Shown: positions 9,101-51,690, counted from the stretch's first letter. The stretch is 59,033 nucleotides of DNA from Raillietiella orientalis (GCA_036172245.1 JAYWIR010000103.1:124001-183033); one strand, 5' to 3'. Program-made: numbers and translations. The notes: generated by a model from the sequence alone, not told the origin.

Positions 9101-9699
9101 AACACGTGGTCAATGCTGTCTTCCATCCCCGGTGCACTGGCCAACAGATTACAGGTGTGCACCGCCATGCACACCTCGTTGACCAGGTCACGCTCGGGAT
9201 TCTGCTCATCTGGTTTCAGGCGAACGTTGAAATCGCCTGCAACCAGATGGGCATTCCACACGCCTGCTTCGGTCAGCCAGTCTCGCCGGAGGGCAAGGAA
9301 AAACTCTTTCCTCGCCCTCCTGTTCATCAGGTCCTTGCCGCTCGGTGCGTACACGTTCGTGACGATCAGATCGATCGAGTCGGACCACCTGAGAGTCAGC
9401 TGGCCGACACGACCGTGATCGTCGAACCGCACGCCCCGAGCCGCGGCCTCGACGGCTGGCCAAAGCAGGTAGGCGACACCGCAACTTTTCGCTCTCCCAC
9501 ACCTGTACCATAGCCGCCCTCCGGAGATCCGTTCGATCTCTTGCGCTTGTTCTGCAGAGATCACGTGGATCTCCTGCAGCAGCGCAAGGTCGTAGGACTC
9601 CAGAAGGGCAAATATGTCTCGTCTCCTGCCGGCGTCTGTCATGCCGTTCACGTTCCAAACGGCGATGCGCAGACGACGGCAGGAGGAGATTCCCGGCAT
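6130..9699 (-). CDS. Open ORF2 of B1, 1189 aa: APE endonuclease, reverse transcriptase, C-terminal zinc finger
   Basis: EN motifs WNVNG, LQE, NVYAP, GDFN, IDHVF, SDH. RT motifs PGEDG, NWRPI, DLQKAFD, RQGDSLSP, YADD. Finger CVRCGERESLPHLLVDC. YLG is changed to YLR. Confidence 0.96.
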   Translation of the reverse strand: MPGISSCRRLRIAVWNVNGMTDAGRRRDIFALLESYDLALLQEIHVISAEQAQEIERISGGRLWYRCGRAKSCGVAYLLWPAVEAAARGVRFDDHGRVGQLTLRWSDSIDLIVTNVYAPSGKDLMNRRARKEFFLALRRDWLTEAGVWNAHLVAGDFNVRLKPDEQNPERDLVNEVCMAVHTCNLLASAPGMEDSIDHVFLDEHLCPRVGSRGRLPCELSDHRPLVLEIHPRDRGPPSSAWRLPGDWLKLPDAAEHLRKFIRSFRLRTLQDWDRFKRSVQEFCDQFPLHRLPTGFGTGVRNERAYLQACRYARTPDIRRLAEYKAGALRQAWQSGSASLLDDQGQEHSAPAQMRGLLRSYYSSLYARAPPERNVSRLLLPEGTPAIGEEQSKTLDEPFTMDEILSAIGRLKRRKTPGEDGLPAEFFQTFAAELTPLVQQFTLLIRETGYVPASFGSAKVRLLPKGGDLRSMNNWRPITIVNADAKLVAKVWAERLGRVANIFISPEQTYAVPGRSMEANLFHASTWLELQHERSLVRSRNSGACAGKGLDGRVGEGALTVAIDLQKAFDCVDQNLLLELLERLGFPASLVTYLRSCWRDALINVAFSGQTVHGVPVRRGIRQGDSLSPLLFSTYFELVLRAYRGTLAHLPHDCAGTPAVSAYADDLLLLLPMSTPATAVEEFFDLLHRGTGLTVNRTKSSVMQLCAAWTWQQDWVRLGIPTVRYLKYLRVPLGDYSPAEAWSGCLQKVETAIGPFRGGRFFLPERAAVWNTFAAPLLRPLLLVCFPTERIKKRTKDLLRIALWGNGRARVRLKDLCAPRRDGGLGLLTLERLELQLQFRLSALVPELWCTCWCVPARFLLQQATGKTGLTSFLALRRRVNRCGLQLRRVAALYRKNPGLLTCRPFNGSAWLQETVRTWGRFGMQRSQQERRFLFGGYRSCTLREILEDPKKRAWAGRTPLAAALPSLMEDLDSDVAAKWVVTVTISGKEKIGEWKTGQLTDAATPSTPPNGLLRWGALLDVPIEHLNWPPVLMNTSALPLKWQESALLLQHWGLPCNARRHHWTWGAVDPNCVRCGERESLPHLLVDCVALRPLWFRFAAAIGIPCCDPRDALKAIFVPEARRPAASLAALCCLRGNVTALSKATGGLRDQGAIQPASQFLRRASRWPHLDPEIQKELAAILQRMQRPH

Positions 9700-9713
9700 T
9701 ACTGCTGGGAAGA

Positions 9714-11375
9714 TTAAGGTGTGGGGGAGCCCTCCTCTTGCGAGGCGGGCGGGATGTCCATGGGGGTTTCGGCCTTCTCAGGCACCTGAGGCACCTGTTC
9801 GGCCTCCACCCCCTCCATCCCCTCCGTGTCCGTGCGTGGGAGTCTCTCGGGCGACGGGTCCCGAGAGTTTCCCACGCTCATGGCACCCTCGCTTGCGGAA
9901 GCCATCTCTTCCCCTTCGACGGGGGAGACGAGCTTCCTTGGCTTTGTGGACTTACGTCCAGCCTTCTTGCGCGGTGCCGTAGAAACGGAGGCTGCGGTTC
10001 CGGCCTCCACCTCGGGGTCGGAAGTGGGGAACATCTGAGGGGAGGCCGGACGCCTTACGGCCTTCTTGCCAGCCTTGGAGGGTTCTGGCTGCAAAGAGGC
10101 TGCCAGCTCCTCCGCGGCTCGCGCGAAGGCTACGTCATCGATGGTGGTGTCGATAACGGACGCCGCCGCCGGTTCGCTCCCCTCGCTGTTGTCTGTGTCA
10201 ACAGAGGGGAGTTCGTCGGTAGCGGCGAGTTCGTTCCGGCAGCGTTCGGCAACATCGAGAACGCGTTCGACAACGACGCTGCACTCTTTAATTATGGCGC
10301 GACCCTGCTCTTTCTTCTTCTATTGGTAGGCGATTTTCTTTTCCATCCTCCTCTCCTTCTTTGATTTTTTGGCTGTTGCCACTTGCCACTCAGTCTCCTG
10401 GCCGGCTCCCTCAACTTTTTCCGCGTTGGTCGCCGGGGTCACGGGTGCGGCCTGGGTCTTGGGCGCGGGTGGCACAGCCTTCGCGGCAGCTTTCGCCTCC
10501 AGTCTTTTCTGCAGAAGCCGGGCGCGTTTTTTAAGGTTTCTCTTGGAAACCACCCGCACTGCTGCTTTTGGGCACACCTCCCTCGTGTGGCCCATTGTGC
10601 CGCATACTTGGCACTGCACATTGGGACACCTCTTTTTGAGGTGGCCCGACGTATTGCAGAAGCCACAGTATTTCGGCTTCCCCCCATACCAGAGGTCGAC
10701 GGTTTCGCCTTCGACCACCAGTTTGTGGGGAAGAGTGCAGCCCTCCCGAACGGTCACGCGCGCAGCAGTGAGGCCGTGTTGCAGCCCCGTGTAGTCCTCG
10801 AAAGGACTAACTTTCGTCCACTGCGCGTGGACCGTTCCAAACTGTTCCAAAGCGGCGCGAACCTGTTCTTTGCGCATTCGCGCGGTCACGCCTAACAGGT
10901 GGACCACCATGCTGCGGTCCGCCGTATTGGGGAGAAGCCTGCGCGTCCCCATCACAACGGTGGTTTTAAGCAGTCGTTGGGCCAGCTCTGCATGTTTGCA
11001 GATGACCTCAACGTACTGACCCCCGCTGCGGAAGGTCATAGCGCTGAGCTCCTCCTCTTTCACATCGAGAGCGCGCATGCCCTTCGAGAAGGCGCGCGCG
11101 CTCTCTAAAGAATATAAATTGCCTACCTTGTAGAACAATGAGGGGTTGTACCCCTCCTCTACATAGGCCGACAATTCCGCCGCGGCTGCAGGCGATGGCG
11201 CCGACACACCGGCGCTTCACGCCCGCGCTGCAGCAGGGACCGATCCTGTGGGGGCGCATGCCCCCACCTCCATCTCCTCCGGGGGCGACGTTGCTGCCGC
11301 CCCCTGGCTCTCCATCGCCTCTGGGGGCGGCGTTGCCGCTGCCCCCTGGCCATTCCTGGTGCTCGCGTCAGGCAT
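9714..11375 (-). pseudogene. ORF1 of B1 (CCHC knuckles) with two in-frame nonsense codons
   Basis: Collinear with the intact B2 ORF1. TGG>TGA at ~11217 and a TAG at ~10320. Knuckles CGFCNTSGHLKKRC and CQVCGTMGHTREVC. Confidence 0.9.
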
Positions 11376-13449
11376 TGCTGCCTGATCGACCACCGAACCA
11401 CACGACGCTTCCACTGGGAGAGACTTCCTGGCACGAGGAGCACCGAGAAAACACGTCCACCCTAGAGCGCACAAGGCGTTCGACTGTGTAGCCCAGAAAC
11501 TTCTCTTGGAGCTCCTGGGTCGCATGAGCTTTCCACCCTCCCTGATCAACTACCTGCGCTCCTGCTGGCGCCATGCCATAATTTCCGTCTTTTTCAGCAG
11601 TCAGAAGGTGCATGGCGTACCGGTGCGGCGGGGCATCAGGCAGGGAGATAGCCTGAGTCCCCTGCTCTTCAGCACCTACTTTGAGTTGGTGCAGACTTCT
11701 TCGAGCTGCTCAGCCGTGGGACCGGACTGCAGGTCAACAGGGCGAAGTCGTCGGTGGTGCCAGTAGGTGCGGCGTGGGCAGGGCAGCAGGACTGGGTCCG
11801 TCTGGGGATCCCCACGGCGAGGTGCTTCAAGTACCTTGGTGTGCCGTTGGGGGACTACTCCCCTGCGGAAGCGTGGTCCAGCTGCCTCCAAAAAATCGAG
11901 ACGGCGATCGGCCCGTTCCTGGAAGGCAAGTTTCACTTGCCGGAACGGGCCGCGGTTTGGAACGCCTTCGCGGCCCCCATCCTCCGCCCCTTGCTTTTTG
12001 TTTGCTTCGCCCCCGTGGAATCAAAAAAGCGGACTAAGGACCTTCTCCGCATAGCTCTTTGGGGCAAGGGGAGGCCCCGAGTCCCACTGAAGGACTTGTG
12101 CGCTCCGCGTCGGGACGGCGGTCTTGGCCTCCTGACGCTGGAGCGCGTGGAGAAGCAGCTGCGGTGGCGAACCCTCGCCATCGCAGCGAAGATGTGGAGC
12201 ACCCCTTGGTGCACTCCGGCCCGCCTCCTGGCCAGCCGTGTGTCCCGGTGCGATGGACTCGCTTCTTTTCTTCTGAGCCGTGGCCGGAAGATGCGAAGAT
12301 GCGGCCTACTGCTCGGGCGCATGGCAACATTGGCCAAGGAGAACAGCTGGATGGTTTGCTGCCCCGCCAACTCCCCCGCCTGGCTGGAGGAGAATATTGG
12401 AACGTGGGCAGTAGTTAACCAGAGAAGCCACGAGACGTGGAATCGTCTCCGATGCAGCCCCTACGCCCGCTGCACGCTGCGGAATCTCCTGGAGAGTCCA
12501 GCAAGATGCACGTGGGCAGAGACGACCTGCCTAGCTACGGCGCTGCACTTCCTAAGGAGGGCACTTCACCGCACTCGGACGCCAAGGTGGCAAGTCTCCT
12601 GCTGCATCGAGGGACGCGAGAAGTTGATCAGCGGCTGGATAACAGGAGAACTGGCCGACGCCACGACCCCGAGGGTCCAGCCGCGAGGATTATTAAGATG
12701 GGGCGAGCTGCTCGCCATCCCCAGGGATGAGCTGAAGTGGCCCCCGGTAATAAAGGAATCCAGGATCCTGCCCCTCAAGTGGCAAGATTCGGCGTTGGTT
12801 TTGTTGCACTGGGGTCTACCCTGCAACGCGCGCCGCTTCTACTGGACGAGGGGAGCTGTGGATCCTGCGTGTGCCATGTGGGGGGAGCGGGAGTCGCTTC
12901 CCCACCTTATTGTGGATTGTGCTGCCCTCCGACCCCTTTGGGAACGGTTCGGGACGACCCTCGGGCTCCCTACGGGCAGCAACCCCAGAGACGTTCTTCG
13001 GCCCCTCCTCGTGAAGGACGCACTGCAGCCAGCCGCAGCCATCGCAGCCTTGTGCTGCGTCTGTGGCTTCGTGGGGGCATGGAGCGACGCCAACAACGAA
13101 GGAGTGGGTCCACAGGCGAGGGATGTCATCCCGTATGCCAAACGCTTCTTGCGAAGAGCTGCCGGATGGCGCCAACTGGGGAATATGCAGACTGACCTCG
13201 AGGGCTTCGTTCGACGGATGGGCCCTCCCCACAGCGACCAGTGATCCCTTCCCTGCCCTCCAGCTTCTTTTTGTTTGTTTCTTTTTATTTTACTTTTTGT
13301 CTTATCCCCATCCCCCTTCGCTGTCGGGGAGTGCCACGCCGGGCTGCGTCCCGGTGTCCCGACAGGTCCTGTGTTTACGGCCGTGGTGGGGCCTTGTACC
13401 ACGCATGGAAAGTTTATTAATAAACGCCCCGGGCGTACCCGGGTGATAA

Positions 13450-16183
13450 CGCCGATTCCCCGGAACAGACGTTGCACAGGGAACTGTTTGCAGAACTCCC
13501 GGACCGAGTCCTTAAATTGGTCCAAATCCGCGAGACTCTGGAGGCTGACGCCTCGCAGGAATTCGCGAAGATGTTCTTTCGCTCCTGACAGGCGCGTCCA
13601 GTCCCCTGGCATACGCCAATCCCTGGATGGCGGTCCCTTGTTGCGCGGGCGCATCTCGAAAACTAACCGGGAATGGTCCGACAGCGTCGATCCAAGTGTC
13701 CCTCGTTTTCCGACCCGTGTGCACAGGTCTTCGTCGAGGAAGACGTGGTCCACGCTGCTGACCATCCCGCTTATTTCTGTCAACAAGTTGCGCGCGCGCA
13801 TGGCGGCGCACAACTCGTTGATCGCGTTACCCTGTGCTCCGGGCTGATCTGAGAGCAGACCGACGTTGAAATCCCCTGCTATCAGATGCGCCTTTCGCAC
13901 GTCCGCGTCCACCAGCCATTCGCGCTTCAAGGTTTCCAGTAACGCGTTGCGCTGCTGGTATCCCTGTTTACCGCTAGGAGCGTACACATTGGTGACGATG
14001 AGGTCGATCGAATCGGACCATCTGAGAATCAGTTGGCCGATCCGTCCGTCGTCCCCAAAGCGCACTCACTTCACGGCCGCGTTAATGGCTGGCTTTAGGA
14101 AGAACGCGACCCCACAAGTGTTGCGGGCGCCGCATCGCCAGTACAACCGCCCTCCCGCAATCGTTTCGATCTCCTGGGCGTCTTTTGCGGTGATCACGTG
14201 GATCTCCTGCAAAAGTACCAGGTCGAAATCTCGCAAGGTGGCGGCTGTATCTCGTCTGTTTCCGTCGTCGCGCAGCCCGTTAACATTCCAACTGGCCGCG
14301 CGGATCCGACGGCGACAGGCGAGTCCAGGTGTTATTCCTGGGAACCTGGCGGTGGAGCTCCCGCCACCTTTTGGGGCGGGTCGCTGGACGGGGTTGGCGT
14401 CTTGCCCACCAACTCCCCATCCTTCTTTCGTGCCGACGTCTCCGGCTGCCCGTGCGAAGGGGGTGTTGTTCGTACCTGTTGGCCCACATCCATTGGTGCG
14501 GGTGGTTCAGGTTCGGCGGTTTCAGAGAGCATTGCTGACCCCTGGTTACCCTCCTCCATTGGAGTCGCCTCCTCGTCGGCTTCCGCACGTGGGTGATGCC
14601 CGACTTGGGCTCCCACGCTGCCATCCACTGGTTCTTCCACCATTGCATCCCCCTCGCGCGGAGGCGGAATGCACCTTCGGGGTTTCTGGGATTTTCGCCC
14701 CGCTTTCCTTGGTGGTGCTTCCGCAGAGGAGGATGCACTTCCGGCCTCCCGGTCCGACTCACCTGCGGGGGCCACTTTAGCCGCTGCCGGCCTACGCAAC
14801 CCCTTTCGCGAAGGGTTCTCGCGTTCGGCAAGCGTTGCCGCAAGCTCCTCGGCGGCCTTCTCGAAGGCTGCCTCCTTGGTTTCGGCGATTTTGTCGTCCG
14901 GCTGACCCTCTTCGCAAACGGGGGGTGGGTTTTCGCGCGCATTCTTCGCGGCAGGAAGATCGATCGAAGCCGTATTGCCTCCGGTGGTGTCGGCGGGAAC
15001 GTCAATGCGCTACAGCGTAACCGTGCATTCTCGGAGAGTTTCTACGCGCGACACGGATTGAGCTTTTGTTCCGGCCGCCGCCTTCTCTCCTTTCTTCGGG
15101 ACATGCTTGTCCTTTTTTTCTTTTTTGGCTTTGACTAGCTGCCAGCCCTGTTCACCCTCTGCGGTTTCGGGAAGGTTTTTCTCCGATGCCGCGCTTGGAG
15201 CTTGGGTTATTGGCACCTTTTCTCGGCCAGTTTCACGGTTTTCTAATTTTTCTTTTCCCGCGCGTTTCGCTTGCGCCTTTTTGGCGGCCGAGGAAATTGG
15301 GGTGGGGCGTTTAGGGCACACGCGACGGACGTGTCCCTTCTCCCCGCACAAGTAGCATACGATGTTCGGGCACCTCTTACGGATGTGTCCGACCGCATCG
15401 CAGTAGCCGCAATACCGTGGCTTGCCAGCATACCAGAGGTCTACTGGTTCTCCCGCGACCTCAAGTTTGTGGGGTAGCTTCGCTTCGTTTTTTGGGGTTA
15501 CGCGTGCCGCAGGAGGCCCCGAAGTGGCGTCCGTAGCCCTCAAAGATTGTGGGCTTCGGCCACAGCGCGTGTACGTCCCCGTACTTACTTAATTCTGCTT
15601 TTACGGCAGTGCGCGTCATGCGCTTGGATATTCCTGTCAAGTGGACCACTACCGAGTGGTCCATTGACACCGGGAAGATCTTACGGCCGTCCATGATCAG
15701 CGGGGTATTTATAAGGCGATCGGCTAGGCTGATGCTCTTGCACACCAGCTCAACCCGCTGCGCCCCGCTGAGCACGCACAGACCGTCCAGATCTTCCTCA
15801 CGGACATTAGCATTTTGTAGCGCTCTGCTGAAAGAGCGCGCTGTGTTTCCTTCAAACAAAGGGCCTACCTTGTATACAAGCGATGGCTTGTATTCAGAGG
15901 ACCGATAGGCGGCTTCCTCGGCCATGGCCTCCGCACTGGGGGCGGCGACCATTTCACTCCAAGTCTTCGCCGGCTGCGAAGACGTTCCAGGGACTATTGC
16001 CCCCATAGATGTAGGTCCTGTGGTAGGACTTGCCTCCCCCACAACCACATCCATCGCGGTGTCCTCTGGCACGGCTGCCATCGGACACCGACGACCCACA
16101 CTTAACACCTGACTACACTAAAAAAACTCCGGTTGCTTCCCAGACAGGCGTTGGCGGAGCGACCAAAAGACACGTCCACCCAC
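13450..16183 (-). mobile_element. Non-LTR retrotransposon C, 5' half (frameshifted ORF1 16081-14332; EN domain 14332-13450); inserted antisense into F
   Basis: 5' end gtgggtGGACGTGTCTTTTGG. Knuckles CGYCDAVGHIRKRC and CYLCGEKGHVRRVC. EN motifs WNVNG, NVYAP, GDFN, SDH. Cut by the 3' end of D at RLFRGIG. Confidence 0.9.
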
Positions 16184-19165
16184 ACCGGCTTTCTGCGAAG
16201 GCGTGAGGAACGACAGGAACTATCTCCAGGCCCCTGGTTTCTCCAACAAGCCCGACGTCCGTCGCCTGGCGGGAATCAAGGCTGGAGCGGAGAGGCAGGC
16301 CTGGCAATCTGGGCCTGCCTGCTTGCTGAATGAAGGCCAGGAGCACTCATCTCCAGCGCAGGTTTGCCGCATGCTGCGGGATTTTTATTCCTCGCTTTAC
16401 GCGATGAGACCACCAGAGCGCACCTCTGCGCAGCGCCCGCTGCCAGAGGGTGCTCCCGCGTTAAAGGAGGAAGAAATAAACATGTTCCTCCAAGAATTCA
16501 CGATGGCGGAGATAATCTCCGCCATCAGAAAAATGAAAAAACACAAAGCACCAGGGGAAGACGGCCTGCCAGCTGAATTCTACCAACACTTTGTGCCAGA
16601 GCTGGCTCCCCTGGTTGTAAAATTATGTATGCTGATTCGTGAACGTGGGGATGTCCCCAACTCGTTCCGGTCAGCTAGAGTACGTCTCCTTCCTAAGGGA
16701 GGAGACTTGCGCAACGTTGGCAACTGGCGTCCCATCACTGTAGTGAATGCGGACGCAAAGTTGCTCGCCAAACTCTGGGCTGAGCGTCTGGGACGGGTAG
16801 CGGCTTCCGTGGTCAGTCCGGAACAGACATACGCTGTTCCCGGACGAACCATGGAGGCCAACATGTTCCTCGCCAGCACATTCTGGCAGTTCAAACAACG
16901 CGAGGCGCAGCTACGTCGGGAAACTCCAGAACTCTCTATTGACAGGGGGGAGGGAAGCTGGGAAGAAGATACGGCGCCTAAAGCCCTTGCGGTCGCAGTC
17001 GATTTGCGTAAAGCTTTCGACTGCGTCTACCAGGAGCTCCTTCTGGAGCTCCTGGAACGCTTGGGATTTCCGGCCGTCTTCCTGGCCTACCTGCGCTCCT
17101 GCTGGCGCTTCGCGTTCATTAATATTGATTTCAGCGGCCCGCACGTGTTCGGCGTGCCGGTGCGGCGAGGCATCCGGCAGGGTGACAGCCTCAGCCCCCT
17201 GCTCTTCAGCATCTACTTTGAGTTGGTGCTGAGAGCATACAGGGAGACTTTGGCAACTCTGTTGAGCTCGTGTCTTGGCACGCCTGCCGTGTCGGCCTAT
17301 GCCGACGATCTTCTGCTCCTGCTTCCCGGGTCCACCCCGGCATCGGCGCTCGAGGATTTCTTCGAGTTGCTATACCGTGGGACAGGCCTCCAGGTAAACC
17401 GGACGAAGTCGTCGTTGCTTTTCACCGACTCGACGAGGGCCGGACGGTCGGACTGGATCCGCTTGGGGATCCCCACGGGCAGGTACATCAAGTACCTTGG
17501 CGTTCCGTTGGGGGACTTCTGCTCTGCAGAAGCCTGGTCCGACCGTCTACAAAAGGTGGAGCTGGCGATCGGCCCGTTCCGGGACGGGAAGTTTCACTTA
17601 CAGGAACGGGCAACGGTATGGAACGCTTTCGCAGCCCACCTCCTTCGCCCCCTACTTTTTGTGTGCCCTTCCCCTTATCAAATTAGGACACGGACTAGAG
17701 GCCTTATACGGAAAGCCCTCTGGGGCAACCGGAGGCCCCGCGTCCGGCTCAAAGACTTGTGCGCTCCACGCAGGGACGGTGGACTTGGTCTCCTGACGTT
17801 GGAGCGCATGGAGCGACAGCTCCAATTCAGAAAACTTGCCCTTGTGGCAAAGTTCTGGACAGCACCCTGGTGTGCACCCGCAAGACTCCTTGCTCACAGG
17901 GCAACCGGCTGCATCGGATTGACTTAAATCTTGGTAGCCAACGAACGCAGCCTGAACCATTGTGGTTATCAGCTGCGGGATTTGGTTGCCCTGCTGAGAA
18001 ACAACCCTTGGATCTCCTGCATCCCAGCGGACTGGACTACCTGGCTTCAGGAGTCCGTTTCCGCATGGGCGAAGATCAATGGCACTAGCGATGAGGACTT
18101 GTCCTGCCTCCGCAGAGGGAGGCACGCTGGTCAGCCACTCCAGGAGATCGTTTCCAACCCACGGAAACTTCTGTGGGCTTCCTTCACCCCCCTTGCCCAT
18201 TGCTGCCCTCCCTCGGGGAAGTTCGGGACAGCCACCAAGAGGCATCATGGGAAGTGTCCTGCCTCATCGGAGGCAGGAAAAAATCAATGAAGGCGTGGAC
18301 GCCGAGGGAACTAGCGGACGCTAGTACCCCGAGTTTCCCGCCGAACGGACTTTTACGCTGGGGCGCGCTGCTCGGTATAACTCCGGAGGAGGTGAAATTG
18401 CCCCCAGCGTCATGGAAGAACGGCACCTTTCCCCTGCAGTGGCAGGAAACGGCGTTGCTTCTGCTCCACTGGGGACTTTTAAGCAGAGCACGCCTGTCTC
18501 GCTGGACATCGGGGAATGTGGATGCTAGTTGTGCAGAGTGCGGGGAAAGGGAGACCTTCCTTCACTTGATTCTGGAGTGTGTTGCCCTCCGCCAAATGTG
18601 GGACAGAATCTCGTCGATCCTCAACATTCCGGAGGGTGACCCGAAAAACTTATTCAGACGCCTCCTGACGCGAGATGGCTTGCCAGCCTACGGTAGCGTA
18701 ATAGTGTTCTGCGGCATACGCGGTACCCTGGAGAAGTGGACCGCGTCTAGGAGAGGAAGGACCAGCCGGAATGCCATCCACTGGGCAGCGATCTCCTTGG
18801 AGAAAGCGTGCCGTTGGCGCCGACTTCGAAAACATTTGCCGGCACGTGTTCGCATCCGTGACCGGATGCAAAGGCCTGCTCACGGCGCACCATGATCCCC
18901 TCCCTCGCTCCCCCTTCCCAAAAACATTGCCCTCCAGATGTTTTTCTTTTTTGGTTTTGTTTTCTTTTTATTTTTCCCGCCCCGGCGCCAGTGAAGGACC
19001 TTATCGGTCTGCGGGTCGGTAAGGACAAGTGCTACTGAAGTTCTCTACTGAACTTCTGACGTCCTAAAAAAAAAAAGAAAAACTTTTAAGAACAAAGACT
19101 TTATAAAAAAATTTTGTAAGCTCAAAAGTTTAGTAATAAAAGCCCCGGCTTACCCGGGTGAAAAA
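16184..19165 (+). mobile_element. Non-LTR retrotransposon F, RT to 3' end (ORF2 to 18895 with a stop at 17927 and a frameshift near 18230)
   Basis: 574-aa ORF with PGEDG, DLRKAFD, RQGDSLSP, YADD and YLG. Finger CAECGERETFLHLILEC. 3' end AATAAAAGCCCCGGCTTACCCGGGTGAAAAA. Confidence 0.92.
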
Positions 19166-21235
19166 CCTGCGACAAGAGACCTGAAACCCACGTCTCCCCA
19201 ACCCATGGAGGTGGGGTCATTCCCCACCACAAAATCAGCCCCCGCCACTCCGGCGAGGGCTTGGAATAAAGTGGCCGCGGCGGATCTGCCGGACGTGGCC
19301 GCCGAAGTGCAGGCCTACATAAAGGAGGGCTACAACCCAGCCCTCCTTTAAAAGGTAGGAAATCTTTATTCACCGCTTACAACGCGGAAATTTGTTAACG
19401 CCATCCGTAGGATAGGAATCTCTGACGAGGAGATTCTTGCTTCTCGATTCGGAGCGGCGGGCAGTTCGCGGAGCTGATCTGCAAAGATGCAGCGCTCACA
19501 CACAAACTGCTCTGCACGCCCGTTCCGTTCGAAGGGCGGAATCTCCTCCCAGACACGGTGGATCACTCTATGGTGATCCACCTCACGGGTACAACGGTGC
19601 GGATGACCGATGAAGCCATCCGCACTGAAATCAACAAATTCGCGGAGATATACGCGATGTGGTCAAAGCCCAACGCCTTTACTTATCGAGGAGCATTCAA
19701 TGGGCGAGTGGCCGCGCGCGTAACTCTCCGCGAAAACAAAGAACTTCCTTACAAGCTTGAAGTCAACGACGAGCTCGTTGATATCTGGTACGTGGAGAAA
19801 GAAAAGTACTGTGGACTGTGCAACACATTTTGGCATCTGAAAAAGAGAAGCCGGGACGCCACATGCCCAACCTGCGGCGCGAAGGGACACTCTAGTGCTG
19901 TGTGCACGAAAAACGCCGCTACAACGCCTGAAACCCCTATTTTAAAAAAAGGGAAGCAGGCAGAAAACAAACCAAACAGTGAAGAACAGACAAACTCAGA
20001 AGAAGCCGAACAAAAGGAACAGGAGAATCAAAAGGAGACTTCTGAACCAACCGTCGGCGAGGAAGGCTCAAAACTAGTCGCAACCTAAAGAACAAAAAAT
20101 CCAAATGCTAGTAATGAAAAAACAAAAAAATCCACAAATCAGAACGCTAGGAAGCCGAAAAAAACAGCGAACGGCGAAAAAAAAATTACGCCTCGAGAAA
20201 TAACAAAGGAATGCCGCGTTAACATCGAGCGCGTTCCGTCGATCGAACGTCGATCGGCAAACGCGACTCCCGTAACCGTCGCGAACGCCGCGGAACCGCC
20301 GCAGGAATCCTGCGACAAGAACGTGAGCAGCAGCGACGAGTAAAACTTCGCGAAGGCGGCGGAGGAACTCGCGGCCATCTTAATGCAGCCGCCTAAGCCT
20401 GCAGAGAAGGCCGTCAGACGTCCGGCGGAAGCCAAAGGACCGGAAACCTCCGAGTCCGAGGCGGAAGGTGGAAACGCTCCCACCGTCGCCCTCCCGAAGA
20501 GGTAGGCGGGCCGGAAGTCCCGCAACCCTATGCGCGTCGCTCCCCCTCAGGCTGAGGAGGAGGAAATGCGCTCGGGTAGCGAGGAGGCGATGTCCGCGAG
20601 GTCGCGGTATCCCTCCGTGGAAACCGCCCGGTCCGATCTTCCGATCGACCTCAGTCCGCCTACCGACGCTCCGGTCGTTGCGGAAACGCCGTCCATGCAG
20701 GTGGACATCGACCAGCCGCCTCTCGAGCAGGAGGCGGCTACACAATCGCCACCACCATCATTAGCATGATGCGTGGAATCGCCTCTTGCCGGCAGCTGCG
20801 TATAGGCTGTTGGAATGTAAACGGGCTGCGTAGCGAAAGCAAGAGGCGCAGCGTGGCCGATACCCTGCGACCTTTCGACTTGGCACTTCTCCAAGAGGTT
20901 CACGCCCTCAAAGGAGAGGACGTCCAGGAGATCGAGAGGCTCACTGGGGGAACTCTACTTCTGAGATGCGGTAGAGACCACTCCCGTGGAGTGCCCCTCC
21001 TGCTGAAGATCGCCGTATAAAGGCAGTGCGTAGTGTAACTTTCGACGATGAAGGTCGAGTTGGGCAAATTGTCCTGAAGTGGTCCGACTCGATCGACCTA
21101 GTGGTCACGAACGTATACGCGCCCTGCAGCAGACACAGGTGCGGAGAATGCACTGCGTTCTTCAAAGCCCTGCGGCGAGACTGGTTGGCCGAAGCCGGCG
21201 TGCGGCGGGCGCACCTGATAGCAAGAGACTACAAC

Positions 21236-24200
21236 CGAGTGAGGATGTGTTTTTCTTCGCTCTCGTCTCCAGGCTTTCAATCGCTTCATCCTGGTGTCGC
21301 GCATTTTGACGACGATGTCGATCCAACCCGAAGCTACTGAAGTTGGAGGAACAGTATAGGGATCTGTAATCGCAAGACCGACGGCCGCCTCCACTTCGCC
21401 TTGCTCGCCAATGGCGATCAGTTTTGCTGACGTTGCTGCCGCGGCAGCCGTCAAAGGGGGAGCACTCGACGATTCAGAGTTGCGATCATACGTAGCTCAG
21501 GGCTATAGACCCGCTCTCCGATAAAAGGTAAGTTTCTTTCTGGGTTTGACGGGAATCAGTTCAACGATGAACTGACCCGTGTTAACGTGCGGGAGAAGGA
21601 CCTCCTCGCCATTATGCCTTTAAAGGATATGGGCTATTTCAAAGTGCGTTGCAAAGACGCTGCACTTGTGCAACGCTTGATGCGCACCCCGTTGTCGATC
21701 CGTGGCCAGAAGGTCTTCCCGGCCGCCATGGACGACTCATTCGTGGCGGAGATTTTCGACATCGAGTCGGAAATCTCGGATATTGATATTCGGAACGCGT
21801 TGGCGAAATTCGCCACGGTCCATGCGCTGTGGAGGGTGCGTAGCAACCTCAACGACTTCCCGTCCATACACAGCGGAGTCGCTGGAGTCCGGCTTAGAAT
21901 GCCGGACCGCCGTCTGCTGCCCACCAAACTACAGGTGAAAGACACGGTCGTTTACCTTTGGTTCGTGGGCAAAGTAAGAACGTGCGAGCAATGCGGGAAG
22001 GAGGGGCATTGTTTGGATAAATGCCCCTCCGGAAAATGCCGTTATTGCAAGCTTTCCGGGCACCAATTAGGAAATTGCCCCGATCTTTTGCGAAAAAAGG
22101 CAGCCGCGTAGCTTCGACGGACGAAAAAAAAGCGGAAAAAAATCAAAATTTCTCGAAAAACCCGGAAAACGCGCGGCAGAAATCCCGCAAAAACGCGAAG
22201 CGGAATGCCGCCCCAAAGAAGCGGGAGTCCTCGCACTCGAAGCCCCGCGCGCCCGATCTCGCGGCAGGGGAGCCCGAAAAGAAAGGGTGCGGGGAATCCG
22301 GGGCAATGGTAAGTCCCCCCAGGCGCAATACGGGACCCGCCGAAGCACGCACGACTCTATCGGAGTCCGAGCAACCGGCAGGGGCGTCAATGGACAACGG
22401 CGGTAAGGACACTCGCAGTACCGTCAGATCCATTCCTTCACCATCTTTAGTGGCGGAGAAGCCCAAAACAGGTAAGAAGGGTTGTGCCATGCCGACTTCG
22501 ATAGTCAACAAAATAAAATCCGCGCCGCGGTCAAACGCCGCGGAAGCGGAGAAATATTCCACATCGTCACAATCGGAGAGTAAGCTCTCGACTGAAGCGG
22601 ACGCGATTCCTACGAAGGGGTTTAAAGCCCCAAGGAAGGCAGCGCCGATGGCGAGCGTGTCGGAGTCATCGGAAATGCTCGCGTCCAAAGACGCGGGCGC
22701 CTCCAATGATGGCAATGGCGCATCAACGGTGGTAAAAGGGAGCGGAAAAATAAACAAAGCTCCAAAAAACTCACCACAACCTACATCCACGGCTCCAAGT
22801 GAAGGGAGGAAACTCCGTGAAGTTACGAAGACTTCCGCGAAGGTTCCACGTGGAACTGCGCGTAACAACGCGGACATCGCGTGTGCCGGGAAGGAATTCG
22901 TTACCAACAGCGACGCTATGGTTACGGGAAATGACGACAGGACTTCTGTCAAATTAGCATAGCCTGCCACTTCTTCGCGGAAGGCCGAAACTCGATCGAG
23001 CATCGGCCAAGCGGACCCCGAAACGGAGGCCGTCCCGATAGCCGAGACGAGGATAACTCGTTCCAAAGCGTGTGCGCGCCGATCTAAAGTAGGCAGCCAG
23101 CGAACGCTTCCAGCGAAACAACCCGAGGTCTCCACGAAACCCGACGGGGTCAAGCATGGCGTGGAGGCGTTACATGCATGTAGCACGACGAAGGAGGGTG
23201 GCGACCGCGCCCTCCAGCCGATCGTGCTGCTCGCCGTCCACTCGGAGGATAAAGCGAGCAAAAAGCCGCCGCCTTCCCAGCAGTAATGCGGGGAATCGCG
23301 TTTTCCCGTAGTATGTCCGTCGCGTGTGGAACGTGAACGGACTCCAGAACGACGAGAAGAGGCAGTTAGTAGCCAACGCCCTGCGCGCCTTCGACATCGT
23401 GCTCCTCCTGGAGATTCACGTAATCTCCGATGAGCAGGCAGCCGAAATCGAGAACCGCGCAGGCGGAACGCTACATGGCGGTGTGACGACGCCCACACGT
23501 GCGGCGTCGCGTTCCTCGTAAGAGGAAAAATGGCGAAAGCGGTGCGTGGTGTTCGTTTCGACGACGAAGGACGGTTAGGCCAACTTGTCATCAAATAATC
23601 GGAGTCCATCGATTTCGTCGTTAGAAACGTCTAGGCGCCGAGTGGCTCTCGCTACCTCGAAGAAAGAGTAGCTTTCTTTGGTGAGGTGCAGAGCCACTGG
23701 CTGAACAACTCCGGCCTCCAAGTGGCGCACCTCGTCACGGGGGACTTTAACGTCCGTCTGCTCTCCGACGATTCGAGCCGCCCCAGGGAGCGCGCGCTTC
23801 CCATCGAGATGTGCACGTCGGTGCCCGCCGTCAACTTCATGGTCAGCGAACCAGGAATGGAAAGATCGCTCGATCACGTTTTCCTCGACGAAAACCTCCA
23901 TTCACGTGTGAGTAGGAGAGGAAGATTGTTGACTGAGCTTTCTGACCAACACAGGTTGGAGTTTGAGATCTTTCCGCCAGGCAAGGGGCCTCCGTTGCAA
24001 AACAGGAGGATGCAGGCGGATCGGCTTAGCCATCCGGAGGCTGCGGAGCATCTACGTGAACACCTACGAGGCTTCGCCATTCAAGAACTCGCGGACTGGG
24101 ACAACCTCAAAAGATCTGTCCGCGAGTTCTGCTGCCAATTCCCCTTGCACCGGCTTCCACGCGGTTTCGGAGAGGGCGTGGCCAACAGTAGAGACTTTCT

Positions 24201-25688
24201 GCAGGCCCGCACGTTTTCGAGACGCGCGGATGTCGGGCGTCTCGCAGAGTACAAGGCGAGGGCCGAGCGCCAGGTCTGGCAGTCCGGAGCAGCATGCCTG
24301 TTGGACGACAAGGGCCAGGAATGTTCGGCCCCAGCCGAAGTACGCCGCATTGTGAGACGCTACTACTCCTCTCTGTACGCGGAATCCCAGACGGAGGATA
24401 TTCTTTCTGAGATACTCCTGTCTCAGGATGCTCGTGTTGTCGGCAAGGAGGAACGCGAACGTCTCAACGAGCCCTTCACGCCGGATGAATTCTCTTCCGT
24501 CATTGCTGGGCTGAAGAGACGAAAGGCGCTAGGAGGATTTCTTCGACCTCATTCGTCGGGGAGCGGGCGTGAGCGTGAACAGAGAGAAGAGCGTGGTCGT
24601 TCCTGTGGGTACGTCGTGGGAGGGGCAGTCCGACTGGATCCGCCTGGGGATCCCCACGGGCGGGTACTTTAAGTACCTTGGCGTTCCGTTGGGCGCTTTC
24701 GGCGCAGCCGAAGCGTGGGCGGACTGTCTTCAGAAAGCAGAGTTGGCCATCAGCTCGTTCTTTAACGGCAAGTTTACCTTGCAGGAACGGGCGACTATAT
24801 GGAACACCTTTGTGGCCCCCCTCCTCCGTCCCCTGTTTTTTGTTTTGGACCCCCCCTATGCGGCAAAACCGCGGGCTAAGCGCCTGCTCAGGAACGCTCT
24901 CTGGGGTCCGGCGAGATCCAGGATCCGCCTTAAAGATTTCGTTGCTCCGCGTCGGGATGCTGGTTTGGGCATCCTGACAATGGAGCGAATCGAACTGCAG
25001 GTGCAGTTCCGAGTGCTGGCACTGTGTGCTCAGCTTTGGACATCTCCCCTGTGTGTGCCTGCACGCATTCTCCAGCGGAGATGCGCCGGCAGCGGAGCAC
25101 TGCTCTGGCTTTTGCGGGGCACCCAATACAGGAAGCGAGGTTTTGGGCTTTCATTGCGGCAGTTGAGCTCACTTCTGGAAGCCCATTCGTGGATCTTCTG
25201 CCGCCCAATGAACTTCGAAGCTTGGCGGCAGGAGTTTGTGGAATCCTGGGCAACGTTCCAAGGAATGCTCCCTGAAGCTCTTTGCCCACTGCGCCATCTT
25301 CTTCCGCGATCTTTGGAAGAAGTACTGCAGGACGAGGTGATGTTTTCTATACATTGATCACCGGTTACCGCTGAGCAGCGGCCAACCTGTGATCAATGTC
25401 GTACCCTCCATGAAGTCATTTTTGTGTTTTCTATTGACACCCGCGTCCCCATTGGCACCGGAACATTTCAGGTTCTCCCCGTTTGAATCCCCGTGAGTAC
25501 GGAGCCTAACTAAGGACCCGTTACCATTCCCTCCAGTTTTTCTGTTTTCGTTTGTTCTCCGCTTATTCCTCCCATGTTGCTGGCGGTTTGTTTACCAGGC
25601 CTGCGTGCCGGTAATTTCTCTCTGTTTCCTGTCAATCTGTTGGTTGGGGAGATTGTTTCTGACCGGTTAATTGTGACCGGGTGAAAAA
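21236..25688 (+). mobile_element. Divergent non-LTR retrotransposon H, both ends present, degenerate, RT core deleted; sense insertion at the GDFN motif of G
   Basis: 5' end cgagtgaGGATGTGTTTTTC. ORF1 ~21315-23286 with CEQCGKEGHCLDKC and CRYCKLSGHQLGNC. TAATG at 23284-23288. EN motifs WNVNG and GDFN. Deletion near 24530. 3' end CCGGGTGAAAAA. Confidence 0.88.
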
Positions 25689-25997
25689 TTTCAATCTACG
25701 GACGGAAACACAAACCCACTGAAGGCCCTTCGTCGTATACACAAAAGGTGAGATAACCGCAGTTAAAGCATTCTAGGGTGCACCATGTCGGACTTGGATA
25801 TCTGACTGATAGGTAGACTCTGTGGTGTACTTGAGCATGTTTAGCATGCTATGCAGTTGCAGTACAATTTGAAGAGCTGGGGGTATATGTATGATGTGCT
25901 TCATGCATGTTGGTCTAGGGTGGCGGGAAGGGCTAATCACTCTGTGATAATACCTAATGTTCTATTTGTTTTTGCAGGTATTGTTGCCTGATTGGTG

Positions 25998-27250
25998 ATG
26001 GCAGCGGCAAGTGAAGACATGTCAGCAACTTTTGAGGAATACAGCTCCAGCTTGCCGGACCTCGATGGTGACATCGAGATAGGGCTTACAACTGGAACAG
26101 ACATAGCCCTCCCAGAAGACCGCCGGTTCCCTGTGTATCAGCCTACAAATTCCCGAGCCACGATTAAGAACATTCGTGCCTCGGCTAACGGATGGTTATA
26201 CAGTGCCAAGCACTTTAAGGATGCCCAGCTTCCGCTCATGTTTAATGGCATATACGCACTGCTGACATACGACTTAATCCGATTCCGCTCGGTGAATGGT
26301 AACCTGATTCCGGATGGTGACTGGAAACCGACCACCCAGCATTACCATATGACACACACACAGAGGACGGCTAGTCAGTCTTTGCTCAACCAACAAACTG
26401 CGACCAACCGCATTGTAGTGATGGTGGCTACCATGGTTTCTTGGTGGCTCACCAATCATAATACCGGGGTGAAGAAAGATAGTTCAAGAGGAGCAGGGTA
26501 TGCACTAAAAGTGTCGCGCTCTCTGTTTGCCCGCACGCCACTTCCCGAAGAAAAGGGGATGGACATCGCCCATACCCTCGGTCACTATTGAAGTACCCTG
26601 AGTATCATGGAGCTGGCCGGATTCACGCATAAAATTCCATCTGTATCGATAGAAATCCAAGGACCCCCTTTTAAACCTATATCCATTTCACAGAATGCGC
26701 TCCTTAGATTCTTGTCCCCTCCAGCTGCTAAGCACAGGCATGCTGTGGCGTACCAGGCTTTTAAACGGCTTGTAAATTGGGCACAGGCGGCAAATTGTCC
26801 GGAGATAGAAAACATGCTATTTCTGGGCGAGGCGTACGCCGAGATAATGCTTAATTTCAAGCATTATCATATTGGGGCAAAGCACATAACTGGACAAGCT
26901 AGTACAAACTTCAGCGATGCTGATGCAGACGCTACTCTCGGACGACTGGGCTCATTTATGCTGAACGTCTACCCAAAATCAACACTATGCCTCTCGCCCC
27001 ATATGTCGCAGCAGGCCGTGGAATCAAAAGAGAACCCCTCTCCTGAATGGGACGCATTCTGTGCAAAGGTCCCAAAGGAGCTGTCTTGAAAACCAATCGA
27101 GATGATATATCCAAACCTGGGGACAGACAAATTTCGGAAATCAGAACAAAACTCTATGAGGCAATTAGGACATTTGAACACAAAATGCCTGGTGTGGCAA
27201 GCGGGAGGCAGCATGAAGACATTGTTCCAGCAGCTGAGCCTATGCATTGA
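25998..27250 (+). pseudogene. Endogenous viral element: Qinviridae-like (negative-strand RNA virus) nucleocapsid/structural protein with one stop (26589-26591) and one frameshift (~27075)
   Basis: Motif series WWLTNHNTG, HTLGHY*ST, LRFLSPPAA, YHIGAKHITG, STLCLSPH. It matches my recollection of qinvirus segment-2 proteins (NHHTG, GHW.ST, LR...PAG, YH.GA.YLTG, TL..SP). No search was run. Confidence 0.72.
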
Positions 27251-27414
27251 GTGCTCACTGGATGATACTCAGACATATAATTTATGTGAGAAATTGACGA
27301 AGATGATAAGATTACAACTAAAGCTTCTTGTATGTTTTGTGTGTAATTATTTGTGTGTAATCTTAGGTAGGAGTAGTTGAAACAAAGGTTTTGGTTTACG
27401 ATGGCGTGGCGACT

Positions 27415-28926
27415 TTTCGCAGCGAAAGAGCGGGCTAAACGTCTGCTCAGAAACGCCCTCTGGGGACCGGGAAGATGCAGGATCCGCCTGAAAGATTTGG
27501 CGGCACCACGTCGGGATGCTGGTTTGGGCATCCTGACAATGGAGCGAATCAAACTGCAGGTGCGGTTCCGAGTGCTGGCACTGTGTGCTCAGCTATGGAC
27601 ATCCCCCGTGTGTGCCTGCACGCATTCTCCAGCGGAGATGCGCCGGCAGCGGAGGACTGCTCTGGCTTTTGCCGGGCACCCAATACAGGAAGCGAGGTTT
27701 TGGGCTTTCATTGAGGCAGTTGACCGCACTTCTGGAGGCCCATTCGTGGATCTCCTGCCGCCCAATGAACTTCGAAGCTTGGCGGCAGGAGTCTGTTGAA
27801 TGCTGGGCAGCATTCCAAGGAATGCGCCCTGAAGATCTTCACCCCCTGCGCCATCTTCTTCAGCGAACTTTGGAAGAAGAAATGCAGCACGAGGTGTAGT
27901 TTTCTACCCTGGCTGCCACGCCTCTCGCCGCAGCGCTGTCTGCCCTCAGGGCAAGAAACGACAGTTGCCAACCGGCGAGGTGAGAGGTTTGCTGCACGAT
28001 AGCGGGAGAAACGAAACTCCTTGGAGCCGGACGCCGCCACTCCTCGTTCTGATGCAAAGGGACTCCTCCGGTGGGCAGAACTTGGTGTCACCCCCGAAGA
28101 ACTTGTAGTCCCTCCACAGTGTACAGACAGTTCTCTGCTCCCCCTTGCTTCGAAACAAGCCGTGCTGCTTTTCGTTCACTGGGGTTTTCAGTGCAACGAG
28201 CGCTGGCATCGTGTCTCCGGGGGACTCGCAAATGCGAACTGCGTTCGGTGAGTGACGACGGAGTCGATCCCGCACCTACTTCTGGACTGCGGTGTCCTAC
28301 AAAGACCTTGGCGAAGGCTGGCAGCAGCACTATCGCATCCCGTGGACACCGCAAGAGACTTGCTGCGACGATTCTTCACGCCGAGCGGACTGTCTACAAG
28401 CGCAAGGATTGCAACCATCGGTTGCATACGCGCCATAGTTTCAGCCCGTCAGGCGCTGGTAATCAACGGGCAGCATCAACAGGTGGTCGGCAAGGCAGCC
28501 TCCTATATGGAAGCGGCCGCCAGATGGCCTCAATTGACCAAGGACATAAAAAACGATCTCGCCGGCATACAACGTCGGTTTACAGACGCTACCTAGCAGC
28601 GCACCCGGTGACCCTTTCCCCTCGCTCCCATCGGTTTTTTTTTTCTTTTTTTTCCCACTTCGGTCCTCTTAGGCTCCGGAACGTTCTAGGTGCTCTCCCT
28701 TGTAAATCTCCGTGAGTACCGAGCCTCACCAAAGACCCGTCACCCTTCCCTCCAGAGTTTGTGTGTTTGTATTGTTATCCCTTTACTCTCTCAATGTTGG
28801 CAGCGGTTAGTTCACCAAGCCTGTGTGCCGGTAACTTCTCTTTGTTCCTTATCGTTTCTTTGCTTGGGGACATCGTCCTTGACCGGTTTATTTAAAATAA
28901 ACGCCCCGGCGTGACCGGGTGATAAA
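27415..28926 (+). mobile_element. 5'-truncated H-family retrotransposon J, directly fused to the 3' end of the qin-like insert
   Basis: AAKERAKRLLRNALWG... is highly similar to H 24860-25340. ORF2 ends at 28596. 3' end AATAAACGCCCCGGCGTGACCGGGTGATAAA. Confidence 0.9.
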
Positions 28927-29343
28927 TTTCAACCTCCGCCTGCTGTCAGGTGATGCCCACGCACAGGAGCGGACGGCCAACGAATTGTGCGCTGCCATGC
29001 GCACGCGCAACTAGTTGGGTGATCTCCCGGGAATGGTCAACAGCATCGACCACGTTTTTCTGCATGCTGCCGTGTCCCCAAGGGTCCTAAACGGGAGAGT
29101 TGCGTCGACGCTGTCGGAGCATTCCCGGCTGATATTCGAGGATTGCCCGAGCGACAAAGGACCCCCTTCCAGGGCGTATGTCTGCCTGGGGACTGGACGC
29201 GACCCTCAGGTACGAAAGAACACCTTCGCCAATTCCTGAGAGGCGTCACCCTCCAGAATCTCGCTGACTGGGAGCTTTTTAAGGCCTCGGTCCGGGAGTT
29301 TTGCGAGGAGTTCCCCTTGCACCTCCGCCCCCCTGATTCGGGG

Positions 29344-30028
29344 TTTCCACCCGGGTATGACCGGGGCGTTTATTGAAAAAATAAAACTCTACAAGACGTG
29401 GTACGAGGCTCCACTAACGGCCTAACAACACCGGACCCGCCGGGACGCAGCCCGCCGTGACTCCCCTCGGCAGTGGAGGGGGATGTGGGCGAAAACAAAA
29501 AATAAAATAAAAACAAAGAAAAAACAAAAAGAGTTTGGAGGGGAAGGGATCACATTCCACTGGGAGGAGGGTCCAACCTTCGCAGGATTCCCTCGAGGTC
29601 CATCAGCATTGAACCCAGCTGGGGCCATCCTTTAGCTCTCCGCATGAAGCAGACCGCATAAGGGATGACATCCCTCTCGATAGCGTCCAATCCTTCGTCG
29701 CATGCATCGCTCCAGGCCGCCACGATGCCTCCGATGCAGCACAGTGCTGCCACGGCTGCGGCTGGCTGCAGGGCGTTACGCACGAAGAGATGACGGAAAA
29801 CGTCTCTGGGTTGGCTGTCCACCTGGAGCCCGAGGATCGTCCCGAACCGTTCCCATAGGGTTCGGAGGGCAGCACAGTCAACAAGTAGGTGGAGGAGCGA
29901 TTCCCGCTCCCCACACCTTGCACACTCAGGCCTTACACTTCCCGCGTCCAGTGGAAGCGGCGCGCGTTGCAGAGTAAACCCCAGTGCAACAGTAGCAGCG
30001 CCGACTCTTGCCACTTCAGGGGGAGAAG
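29344..30028 (-). mobile_element. 5'-truncated retrotransposon E (D/K-like 3' end) with a 12-bp TSD, antisense in G
   Basis: TSD CCTGATTCGGGG at 29332-29343 and 30029-30040. Finger CARCGERESLLHLLVDC. Terminal hairpin present. Confidence 0.93.
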
Positions 30029-30585
30029 CCTGATTCGGGGACGGGGTCCGTAACGAACGGGCATATTTGCATGCCCGCTATTACGGAAGGACCCACAATG
30101 TCCGTCGCCTGGCAGAGTACCGAGCCGGGGCGGAGCGCCAAGCCTGGCAATCCGCGTCGGCCAGCTTGCTGGACGACCAGGGCAGGGAGCACTCGGCCCC
30201 GGCCGCGAAGCGCAACCTCGTGCGGAGATTTTATTCCTCCCTTTACGCCAGAGCCTCCGCGGAGCAAGACGCCTCCCGGCGCATGGTTCTGGCTGGTGCC
30301 CCGGGAATAGGGGAGGCGGAGAAGAAAAGCCTCGACGAGCCTGTTACGACCGGCGTAATTCTCGCCGGGATTAAAAGGCTGAAAAGGCGGAAAGCACCAG
30401 GGGAGTACGGCCTGCCCGTGGAGTTTTTCCAATGCTTCGCGGCAGAGTTGGCACCACTGGTGCTTCAGTTGACAAGGCTGATCCGAGACGAAGGTGATGT
30501 TACCGCCTTGTTTCGGTCAGCCAGGGTGAGGCTCCTTCCCAAGGGAGGAAACCTCAGAGAGCTCAGCAACTTGCGTCCGATAAAT

Positions 30586-30870
30586 ATGGAAGCCACACAT
30601 AGTAGAAGAATCTGTAAGTCATACCAAGGATATGGATTTTGTGCATATAGTCACCACTGTTGATACACACATAACTACGGAGATGCAACTCTTGAAAGTA
30701 TTGCAGCAATGTTAGACTATATAATAGGCAATATGAGGGAAATAAGACACAATGTGTGTAACATATCTCGAAGATATAGTATATATGATTACCTGGATGC
30801 CAGGAGAGCAAGATCGATGAGTAAAGCCTCTAGAAGTTACCAACATCAAGACATTAAGAAAAAAAAATAA
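30586..30870 (+). pseudogene. Small (~94 aa) CCCH zinc-finger ORF with one internal stop, ending in ATTAAGAAAAAAAAA; putative retrocopied mononegavirus mRNA
   Basis: MEATHSRRICKSYQGYGFCAYSHHC*YTHNY gives C-x8-C-x5-C-x3-H. The frame stays open after the TGA at 30661-30663 to the TAA at 30868-30870. Confidence 0.6.
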
Positions 30871-30949
30871 AAAATTCCCGAGTTGCACTTAGCGTACCAA
30901 GTGATCTGGTTTCTGACGTCTGTACAGTCTACTCCCTAGAATTGAAATC

Positions 30950-32220: not shown

Positions 32221-32221
32221 C

Positions 32222-32940: not shown

Positions 32941-32959
32941 CATCTGCCAAACCATCGTC

Positions 32960-34870: not shown

Positions 34871-34939
34871 ATGACTACAAGCCTGTACTCAGGTATACGA
34901 TTTCACCTCACGACAGAACATCTTTGGCAGCCAATTCGG

Positions 34940-51669: not shown

Positions 51670-51690
51670 TGCTCCAGGGTGGACGTGTTT
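51652..51690 (+). promoter_or_regulatory. Putative composite Inr + DPE core promoter of B2 (equivalents at A1 4998/4971, B1 11485/11458, C 16204/16177, A2 57859/57886)
   Basis: gcAgtc (A at 51654, in host K) and GGACGTG starting at 51681, which is +28, the canonical Inr-DPE spacing. Confidence 0.65.

Follow-up and report, generated by a model that had tools for sequence, protein, structure and literature searches.

Two habits of long interspersed nuclear elements (LINEs) are already known, nesting in copies of their own kind and insertion at specific sites. Nested clusters that target pre-existing copies are described for Zepp and ZeppL in the covered passages of PMC8226300 and PMC3446292, and the Tx1 group, according to the covered part of PMC3747384, comprises site-specific LINEs with an APE-type endonuclease that lie inside the L1 clade. 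In human repeats, nested insertions cluster at specific positions, for example at position 133 for Alu in Alu, and show an orientation bias; for L1 in L1, 21,559 sense and 9,899 antisense insertions were counted, about 2.2 to 1 (Levy, Schwartz and Ast 2010, PMC2836564, sections covered). Here, we describe a LINE family in a 59,033-nt stretch of the Raillietiella orientalis genome (GCA_036172245.1 JAYWIR010000103.1:124001-183033), referred to below as the window and numbered from its first letter. The copies lie nested in one another, and three of them, inverted relative to their hosts, interrupt three different hosts at one homologous position of the second open reading frame (ORF2). Sites in ORF2 are given throughout as amino acids (aa) of the intact copy of element B (6130-9699).

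In the literature searched, which did not include the original Zepp papers and supplements, we found no description of a LINE with several fixed, mostly inverted targets in its own ORF2, and these sites may be new. Zepp of Chlorella and Coccomyxa and ZeppL-1_cRei of Chlamydomonas are described, in the passages covered, as likewise L1-type, GC-rich compared with their surroundings and arranged in clusters of nested copies. The same passages, which exclude the original papers PMC1169995 and PMC169880, mention neither a fixed nucleotide target nor inverted polarity for Zepp. According to the covered part of PMC3747384, Zepp has a poly(A) tail, whereas the copies in the window end in a hairpin followed by 2-5 A. 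Cnl1 of Cryptococcus nests in tandem orientation near telomeres; here, in contrast, nine of 12 insertions are inverted, including all three at aa ~297, and fixed ORF2 nucleotides are hit. R1, TRAS/SART and the Tx1 group are likewise APE-type, with independent copies at the same target nucleotide and fixed polarity. However, their targets are host repeats (ribosomal DNA, telomeric repeats, small nuclear RNA or transfer RNA (tRNA) genes, or another transposon), usually with one site per family, while here the target is the family's own coding sequence, with at least four sites. The human hotspots, in the sections covered, follow weak L1 endonuclease sites near A-rich tracts and favour sense insertion, unlike the GC-rich coding site and inverted polarity observed in the window.

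Three inverted insertions at one position of ORF2

Three junctions were found at aa ~297, within the motif R-L-P-x-G-F-G. The 3' terminus of element D occupies 13419-13449 of the plus strand (AATAAACGCCCCGG-N6-CCGGGTG-ATAA), and from 13450 onward the sequence is the reverse complement of the ORF2 of host C, which ends ...CGG GGA ATC GGC G; at the break, the motif of this host reads ...R-L-F-R-G-I-G plus one base. The ORF2 of host G (plus strand) runs to 29343, ending ...CCC TGA TTC GGG G, and is followed from 29344 by the inverted 3' terminus of element E, after which the host is picked up again at 30029. E is flanked by a target-site duplication, CCTGATTCGGGG, present at 29332-29343 and 30029-30040 with 12/12 bases identical. 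Finally, 16184 is the first base of the 5' end of element C, and 16185 opens the ORF2 of host F with CCG GCT TTC TGC GAA. The window holds only the 3' junction of D in C and only the 5' junction of C in F. The original prediction, made by reading the same DNA, had placed the three ends after CGG GGA ATC GGC G, after CCC TGA TTC GGG G and before CCG GCT TTC TGC GAA, with a 12-bp duplication around E; the junctions 13449|13450, 29343|29344 and 16184|16185 and the duplication itself agree with it in every point.

When ten pieces from nine copies were aligned with MAFFT, hosts C and G ended in one and the same column, one base into the codon after G-F-G, and the D and E ends are thus in the same nucleotide register, as had been claimed. 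Host F begins 13 columns upstream of this column, at what corresponds to the start of the right copy of a 12-14 bp duplication (the offset becomes 13-16 if the ambiguous bases TGT are counted as host). D, E and C are all antisense to their hosts C, G and F. Inverted copies of one family have therefore broken three different hosts at a single homologous position, and C, on one contiguous stretch of DNA, is both an attacker, as the insert in F, and a victim, as the host of D; both statements of the prediction hold.

The site is occupied in three of the nine copies that cover it, while A, B, H, X1 (host X, part 1), R and L cross it uninterrupted. Copies that read TC-N-G-S-G before the nick are occupied in 3/4 cases and the others in 0/5, which is a hint only, since the count was made by eye on the MAFFT alignment and B and H are close relatives.

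Independence of the insertions and chance expectation

The insertions of D, E and C are separate events. E is a 5'-truncated insert of 685 bp with its own 12-bp duplication, and the 1,757 bp of D are continuous and contain an open frame of 496 aa; neither junction can therefore be a copy of the other.

The clustering was compared with a uniform model in which 11 events were placed on a 5,560-nt element in two orientations, with a tolerance of 3 nt and 2,000,000 trials. The mean number of coincident pairs under this model was 0.035 and the probability of three or more was 5e-5, as against five pairs observed, three of them at aa ~297; about 7e-5 triples were expected. This count predates the recognition of another junction at aa ~157 and is for that reason conservative. 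Within the window, the breakpoints in the aligned ORF2 copies are thus clustered, as the prediction had anticipated, and the uniform model is rejected.

Other recurrent sites and polarity

Further recurrent sites are listed in the table. At aa ~263 the inserts A and K are 95% identical and their hosts X1 and L 82%, and at aa ~567 the corresponding values are 92% for B and H and 75% for X2 (host X, part 2) and J. Inserts that resemble each other more than their hosts do are expected from repeated independent homing and not from segmental duplication. Both junctions of B in X are present, with a 14-bp duplication containing one mismatch, and the 5' junction of H in J lies no more than 2 nt from the B junction at this site. 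J is probably inserted antisense into U, with its 3' junction within a decayed ORF1. Three junctions are in register at aa ~157, one formed by the 5' end of Q with P and two by 3' ends, of S with V and of T with the left part of G (G1); the duplication is shorter here, about 7 bp. This site has been used two or three times, and the S and T junctions may not be independent of each other.

Polarity is constant at each recurrent site, antisense at aa ~263, ~297 and ~567 and sense at aa ~157, which fits an asymmetric recognition sequence. In total, 9/11 scored events are antisense (binomial p 0.065), or 9/12 with the added sense junction at aa ~157. The predicted antisense insertion accordingly describes all three events at aa ~297, but does not extend to a general rule, as aa ~157 is used in sense. 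The idea that each subfamily has one site of its own was ruled out, as D is as close to L, found at aa ~491, as it is to E, which uses D's own site.

Coding capacity and termini of the family

Searches of both strands by tblastn, with the intact 1189-aa ORF2 of element B (6130-9699, minus strand) and a 555-aa ORF1 (51746-53413) as queries, showed that fragments tile most of 1-30.6 kb and 48.7-59 kb. The window thus contains two nests of L1-like non-long-terminal-repeat retrotransposon copies with ORF1 and ORF2. ORF2 carries an N-terminal APE-type endonuclease (Pfam PF03372 Exo_endo_phos, aa 14-222, E 6.9e-9) and, downstream, a reverse transcriptase (PF00078 RVT_1, aa 463-708, E 4.2e-21), both above cut-off. 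A C-terminal zf-RVT match (PF13966) is weak (19.8 bits, E 0.0013, under the 27.5-bit cut-off), and a C-x2-C-x7-H-x4-C string is readable in the C-terminal translation; ORF1 has weak CCHC knuckles. Among PDB sequences, a comparison limited to clades with solved structures, the best relative of ORF2 is human LINE-1 ORF2p (E 4.7e-45), with R2 proteins at 1e-12 to 1e-13. Judged by these sequence matches, the family is an L1-like non-long-terminal-repeat retrotransposon. The retrotransposon blocks have a GC content of ~60%, which falls to 33-42% at 32-48 kb.

The 3' terminus consists of AATAAACGCCCCGG-N5/6-CCGGGTG followed by 2-5 A-rich bases. This pattern has four matches in the window, as against 0 expected from 100 shuffles; a further three or four 3' ends, which are more diverged, were recognised by eye. 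None of the 3' ends read by eye has a long poly(A) tail; they end in GTG and 2-5 A-rich bases. Before the A-rich tail lies a CCCGG ... CCGGG inverted repeat with a 5-6 nt loop (5904-5933, 13419-13449, 29344-29374 and 54889-54918). The stem of this hairpin is invariant, so that no covariation is seen; it is probably the RNA handle read by the reverse transcriptase. The 5' terminus reads (GGGT)GGACGTGTYTTT, and the 5' motif GGACGTGT occurs at five element starts, with one stray match at 15327. On the minus strand, the 5' end of C is TGTGGGTGGACGTGT, of which the core GGGTGGACGTGT is common to copies B and H.

Proposed mechanism and alternative explanations

Taken together, these results make it probable that new copies of the family enter sister copies at a small number of fixed sites, by target-primed reverse transcription. 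Three features have the geometry of this process, namely the junction of the insert's 3' terminus with the host coding strand, the short duplications around complete events and the 5' truncation of one insert. At aa ~297, the coding strand of the older copy would be nicked one base into the codon that comes after G-F-G (5'-...TTC GGN G^A...-3'), and the freed 3' hydroxyl would serve as primer for reverse transcription of the incoming RNA, starting at the 3' terminus of that RNA (CCCGG/CCGGG hairpin, GTG and 2-5 A). The second strand would then be cut 12-14 bp away, an order of the two nicks that we infer, giving the duplication and leaving the new copy inverted relative to its host; repeated rounds would build nests of alternating polarity. 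The sites would be selected by the element's own APE-type endonuclease or by another DNA-reading part of the ORF2 protein (ORF2p), and the conserved coding motif may keep the target alive across diverged subfamilies.

Several observations speak against this explanation. Identity is 77% between D and E and 75% between their hosts C and G; since the two pairs are about equally diverged, identity cannot separate the two events, and the argument for their independence lies in the insert lengths and the duplication around E. Alignments of the nick sites in host-sense and insert-sense orientation did not reveal a motif that all sites share; the one recurring feature, a loose T-T-C/G a few nucleotides ahead of the nick, is not claimed as a motif. 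The degenerate 9-mer CSCMGAWWS, common to the three junctions at aa ~297, occurs 18 times in the window, with 18.2 expected by chance, and five of the 18 matches are this site (both duplication copies in G, C, F and the unoccupied X), so that a short motif alone does not account for the precision of insertion. The whole case comprises ~12 events in one window, and its junctions are those given by the assembly. One public run contained a third of the words of copy B, and the eight contig pieces listed on B measured 197-366 bases. None of the contigs listed spans B, and the six loose ends listed, out of 238, do not lie at the sites of interest; these contigs neither support nor contradict the hotspot.

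Precise insertion into sister copies might instead be guided by RNA: transcripts would pair with the template strand of sister copies as an R-loop, and the displaced coding strand would be nicked where it is accessible and prime reverse transcription. Self-specificity and inverted polarity would both follow, in line with the 9/11 antisense events, in which the nick lies on the host coding strand, with the lack of a shared DNA motif among sites and with targets that are sister copies only. We nevertheless consider this route unlikely. Sense insertion is seen two or three times at aa ~157 and again for F in P, strand displacement alone does not predict single-nucleotide precision across hosts that are only 66-75% identical, and the antisense excess is not significant (9/11, binomial p 0.065). 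It is still less probable that one ancestral insertion was spread by segmental duplication or gene conversion and that the shared junction was inherited. An old composite duplication is compatible with the identities of 77% and 75% for D/E and C/G, and long inverted similarities do connect the two ends of the window; however, E measures 685 bp, is bounded by a perfect 12-bp duplication and leaves its host in register, while the 1,757 bp of D are uninterrupted, and C is the host in one junction and the insert in another. Moreover, inserts at two other antisense sites are 92-95% identical and their hosts 75-82%, and nest topologies differ between the two sides of the window.

Assembly artefacts, or recombination between inverted copies, must also be weighed in a region that is this repetitive, with junctions taken from an assembly, and the X2|D and R|S joins at aa ~680 show that internal rearrangements or deletions occur. 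Such processes would join homologous internal positions, whereas every junction considered here sets a complete 3' or 5' terminus against an internal host position, and one junction pair carries a perfect 12-bp and another a 14-bp duplication; an origin of this kind is very improbable. Coincidence without any site preference has the small sample in its favour, yet with five coincident pairs observed where three or more had a simulated probability of 5e-5, and with ~7e-5 triples expected, hardly any likelihood is left for it.

Beyond integration at fixed sites by target-primed reverse transcription, we put forward, as a tentative and rather doubtful extension, that an L1-type lineage has turned into a homing element for its own coding sequence, with few fixed sites and fixed polarity in sister ORF2 copies. 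As R-L-P-x-G-F-G would have to be kept by every functional copy, such a target could not mutate away; a new copy would disable the host copy and gain a safe place to land, and GC-rich islands with alternating polarity would build up, in a process that would be Zepp-like and possibly centromere- or heterochromatin-building.

L1-type endonucleases are generally viewed as loosely specific, and site-specific LINEs are natural models for programmable RNA-templated insertion. If fixed-site integration into sister copies is correct, the family would offer a compact system for studying DNA recognition by an APE-type endonuclease or by some other part of ORF2p. It would also show a transposon securing a permanent target through a constrained coding motif of its own kind, and would explain event by event the formation of nested LINE islands such as those of Zepp at algal centromeres. 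Competition between subfamilies is raised as well, since each insertion destroys the ORF2 of the host copy.

Map of elements and structure of the nests

Table. Insertion sites, elements and host pieces in the window, with the evidence for those around aa ~297
Feature	Position	Strand or orientation	Content and context	Evidence
Site aa ~157 (D-F-N, GA^TTTCAAC)	21235|21236, 25688|25689, 28925|28926	sense		
Site aa ~263		antisense	A into X1, K into L; identical 5' junctions, same column	
Site aa ~297		antisense	D into C, E into G, C into F	
Site aa ~491		antisense	L into H; one 3' junction	
Site aa ~567 (K-A-F-D motif)		antisense	B into X, H into J	
Site in P ORF1		sense	F into P	
Host X, part 1	4972..5902	+	ORF2 aa ~263-569; G-F-G site intact; A 5' end at left edge	
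Element B	5903..11469	-	full-length reference, intact 1189-aa ORF2 (6130-9699); antisense in X at aa ~567	
Host X, part 2	11470..11692	+	ORF2 aa ~565-638; joined directly to D at aa ~680	
Element D	11693..13449	+	ORF2 aa ~680 to stop, 3' untranslated region (UTR), 3' terminus; antisense in C	tblastn aa 681-1189 at 11694-13232; 3' pattern at 13419-13445, 0 mismatches
Element C	13450..16184	-	5' UTR, ORF1, ORF2 aa 1 to ~297; hosts D, inserted in F	ORF2 aa 2-300 at 14329-13439; ORF1 at 16033-14641; GGACGTGT at 16177, minus strand
Element F	16185..19164	+	ORF2 aa ~293 to 3' terminus; hosts C; 3' end adjoins P ORF1, sense	tblastn aa 290-965 at 16173-18209, aa 959-1188 at 18188-18877; 3' end ...CCCGGGTGAAAA(A), A run merges with first base of P, so boundary 19164 or 19165
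Element Q-R-S	21236..25688	+	full 5' end, own 3' end, internal deletion aa 417-680; sense in P at aa ~157	
Host piece V	from 25689		short piece directly after S	
Element T	27419..28925	+	ORF2 aa ~790 to 3' terminus; 3' end joined in sense to G at aa ~157	
Host G, left	28926..29343	+	ORF2 aa ~157-297, ends in left duplication copy	tblastn aa 156-241 at 28925-29179, aa 243-307 at 29182-29394 (alignment overruns junction)
Element E	29344..30028	-	ORF2 aa ~1049 to stop and 3' UTR; antisense in G	tblastn aa 1049-1188 at 29972-29565; 3' pattern at 29348-29374, 0 mismatches
Host G, right	30029..30624	+	right duplication copy, ORF2 to aa ~478-491	tblastn aa 295-491 at 30034-30624
Element H	51672..54888	+	92% identical to B; 5' end antisense in J at aa ~567	
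Element L	54889..57885	-	3' terminus antisense in H at aa ~491; G-F-G intact; K 5' end adjoins at aa ~263	

The nesting can be written as P > F > C > X > {A, B} for the left nest and U > J > H > L > K for the right nest. The brackets are consistent with pure nesting clipped by the window edges, and the nests are five levels deep. The possibility that the two window ends form one inverted segmental duplication was ruled out, as segment identities range from 75% to 95% and nest orders differ.

Under pure nesting, D has to be the 3' part of X, and most likely it belongs to a longer element, X, which comprises 4972-5902, 11470-11692 and 11693-13449 and from which aa 638-680 have been deleted internally. 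X2, which reaches aa 638, meets D, which starts at aa 680, with zero bases between them (11692|11693), and R, which reaches aa 417, meets S at aa ~680 (24532|24533). The two joins have different left positions and the same right boundary at aa ~680 (...AGGAYTTCTTCGA...), in the same orientation. One possibility is that this boundary is a pause or template-jump point of the reverse transcriptase that gives rise to internal deletions.

A direct repeat with 88-92% identity (24860-25344 and 27419-27901) covers the ORF2 part of S and T, while their 3' UTRs are only 75% alike; between S and T lies an unrelated AT-rich segment of 1.7 kb (about 25720-27400) with two ORFs without Pfam match. The end of host G (30600-30650) lies within ~10-30 nt of aa ~491, the site at which L entered H. 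GC content drops abruptly there, and the sequence inserted at this point is not of this LINE family.

Searches for relatives and the block between the nests

The exhaustive protein search returned one 619-aa fragment at 71% identity, full-length matches otherwise reaching no more than 35%; all of these proteins are unnamed. In the word-based protein search, matches did not exceed 33% identity (24-27% among the strongest), and the protein atlas search gave only unnamed reverse transcriptase clusters. A protein-guided scan of metagenome contigs yielded 65 loci, 63 of them with a best-segment identity of 22-46% and two (L064 and L065) with 59-64% over a short segment only. The 3'-terminus pattern had no match in metagenome contigs. 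Its sole exact match in prokaryote genome contigs (L066) was rejected as a chance occurrence, being a terminator-like hairpin after an ordinary bacterial enzyme gene on a short contig.

No tRNA or Rfam matches were found in the window. The block between the nests (30625-49600) has a GC content of 33-50% and is without tRNA, Rfam or clear Pfam content. A 575-aa ORF in its AT-rich part (41994-43721, minus strand) had no relatives in the protein search. At 32225-32748, short ORFs with a weak match to the viral Rep family (PF02407, E 0.021, below cut-off) are followed by a P-loop-like GKT motif, and this segment may be what is left of a circovirus-like or Helitron-like Rep that has decayed.

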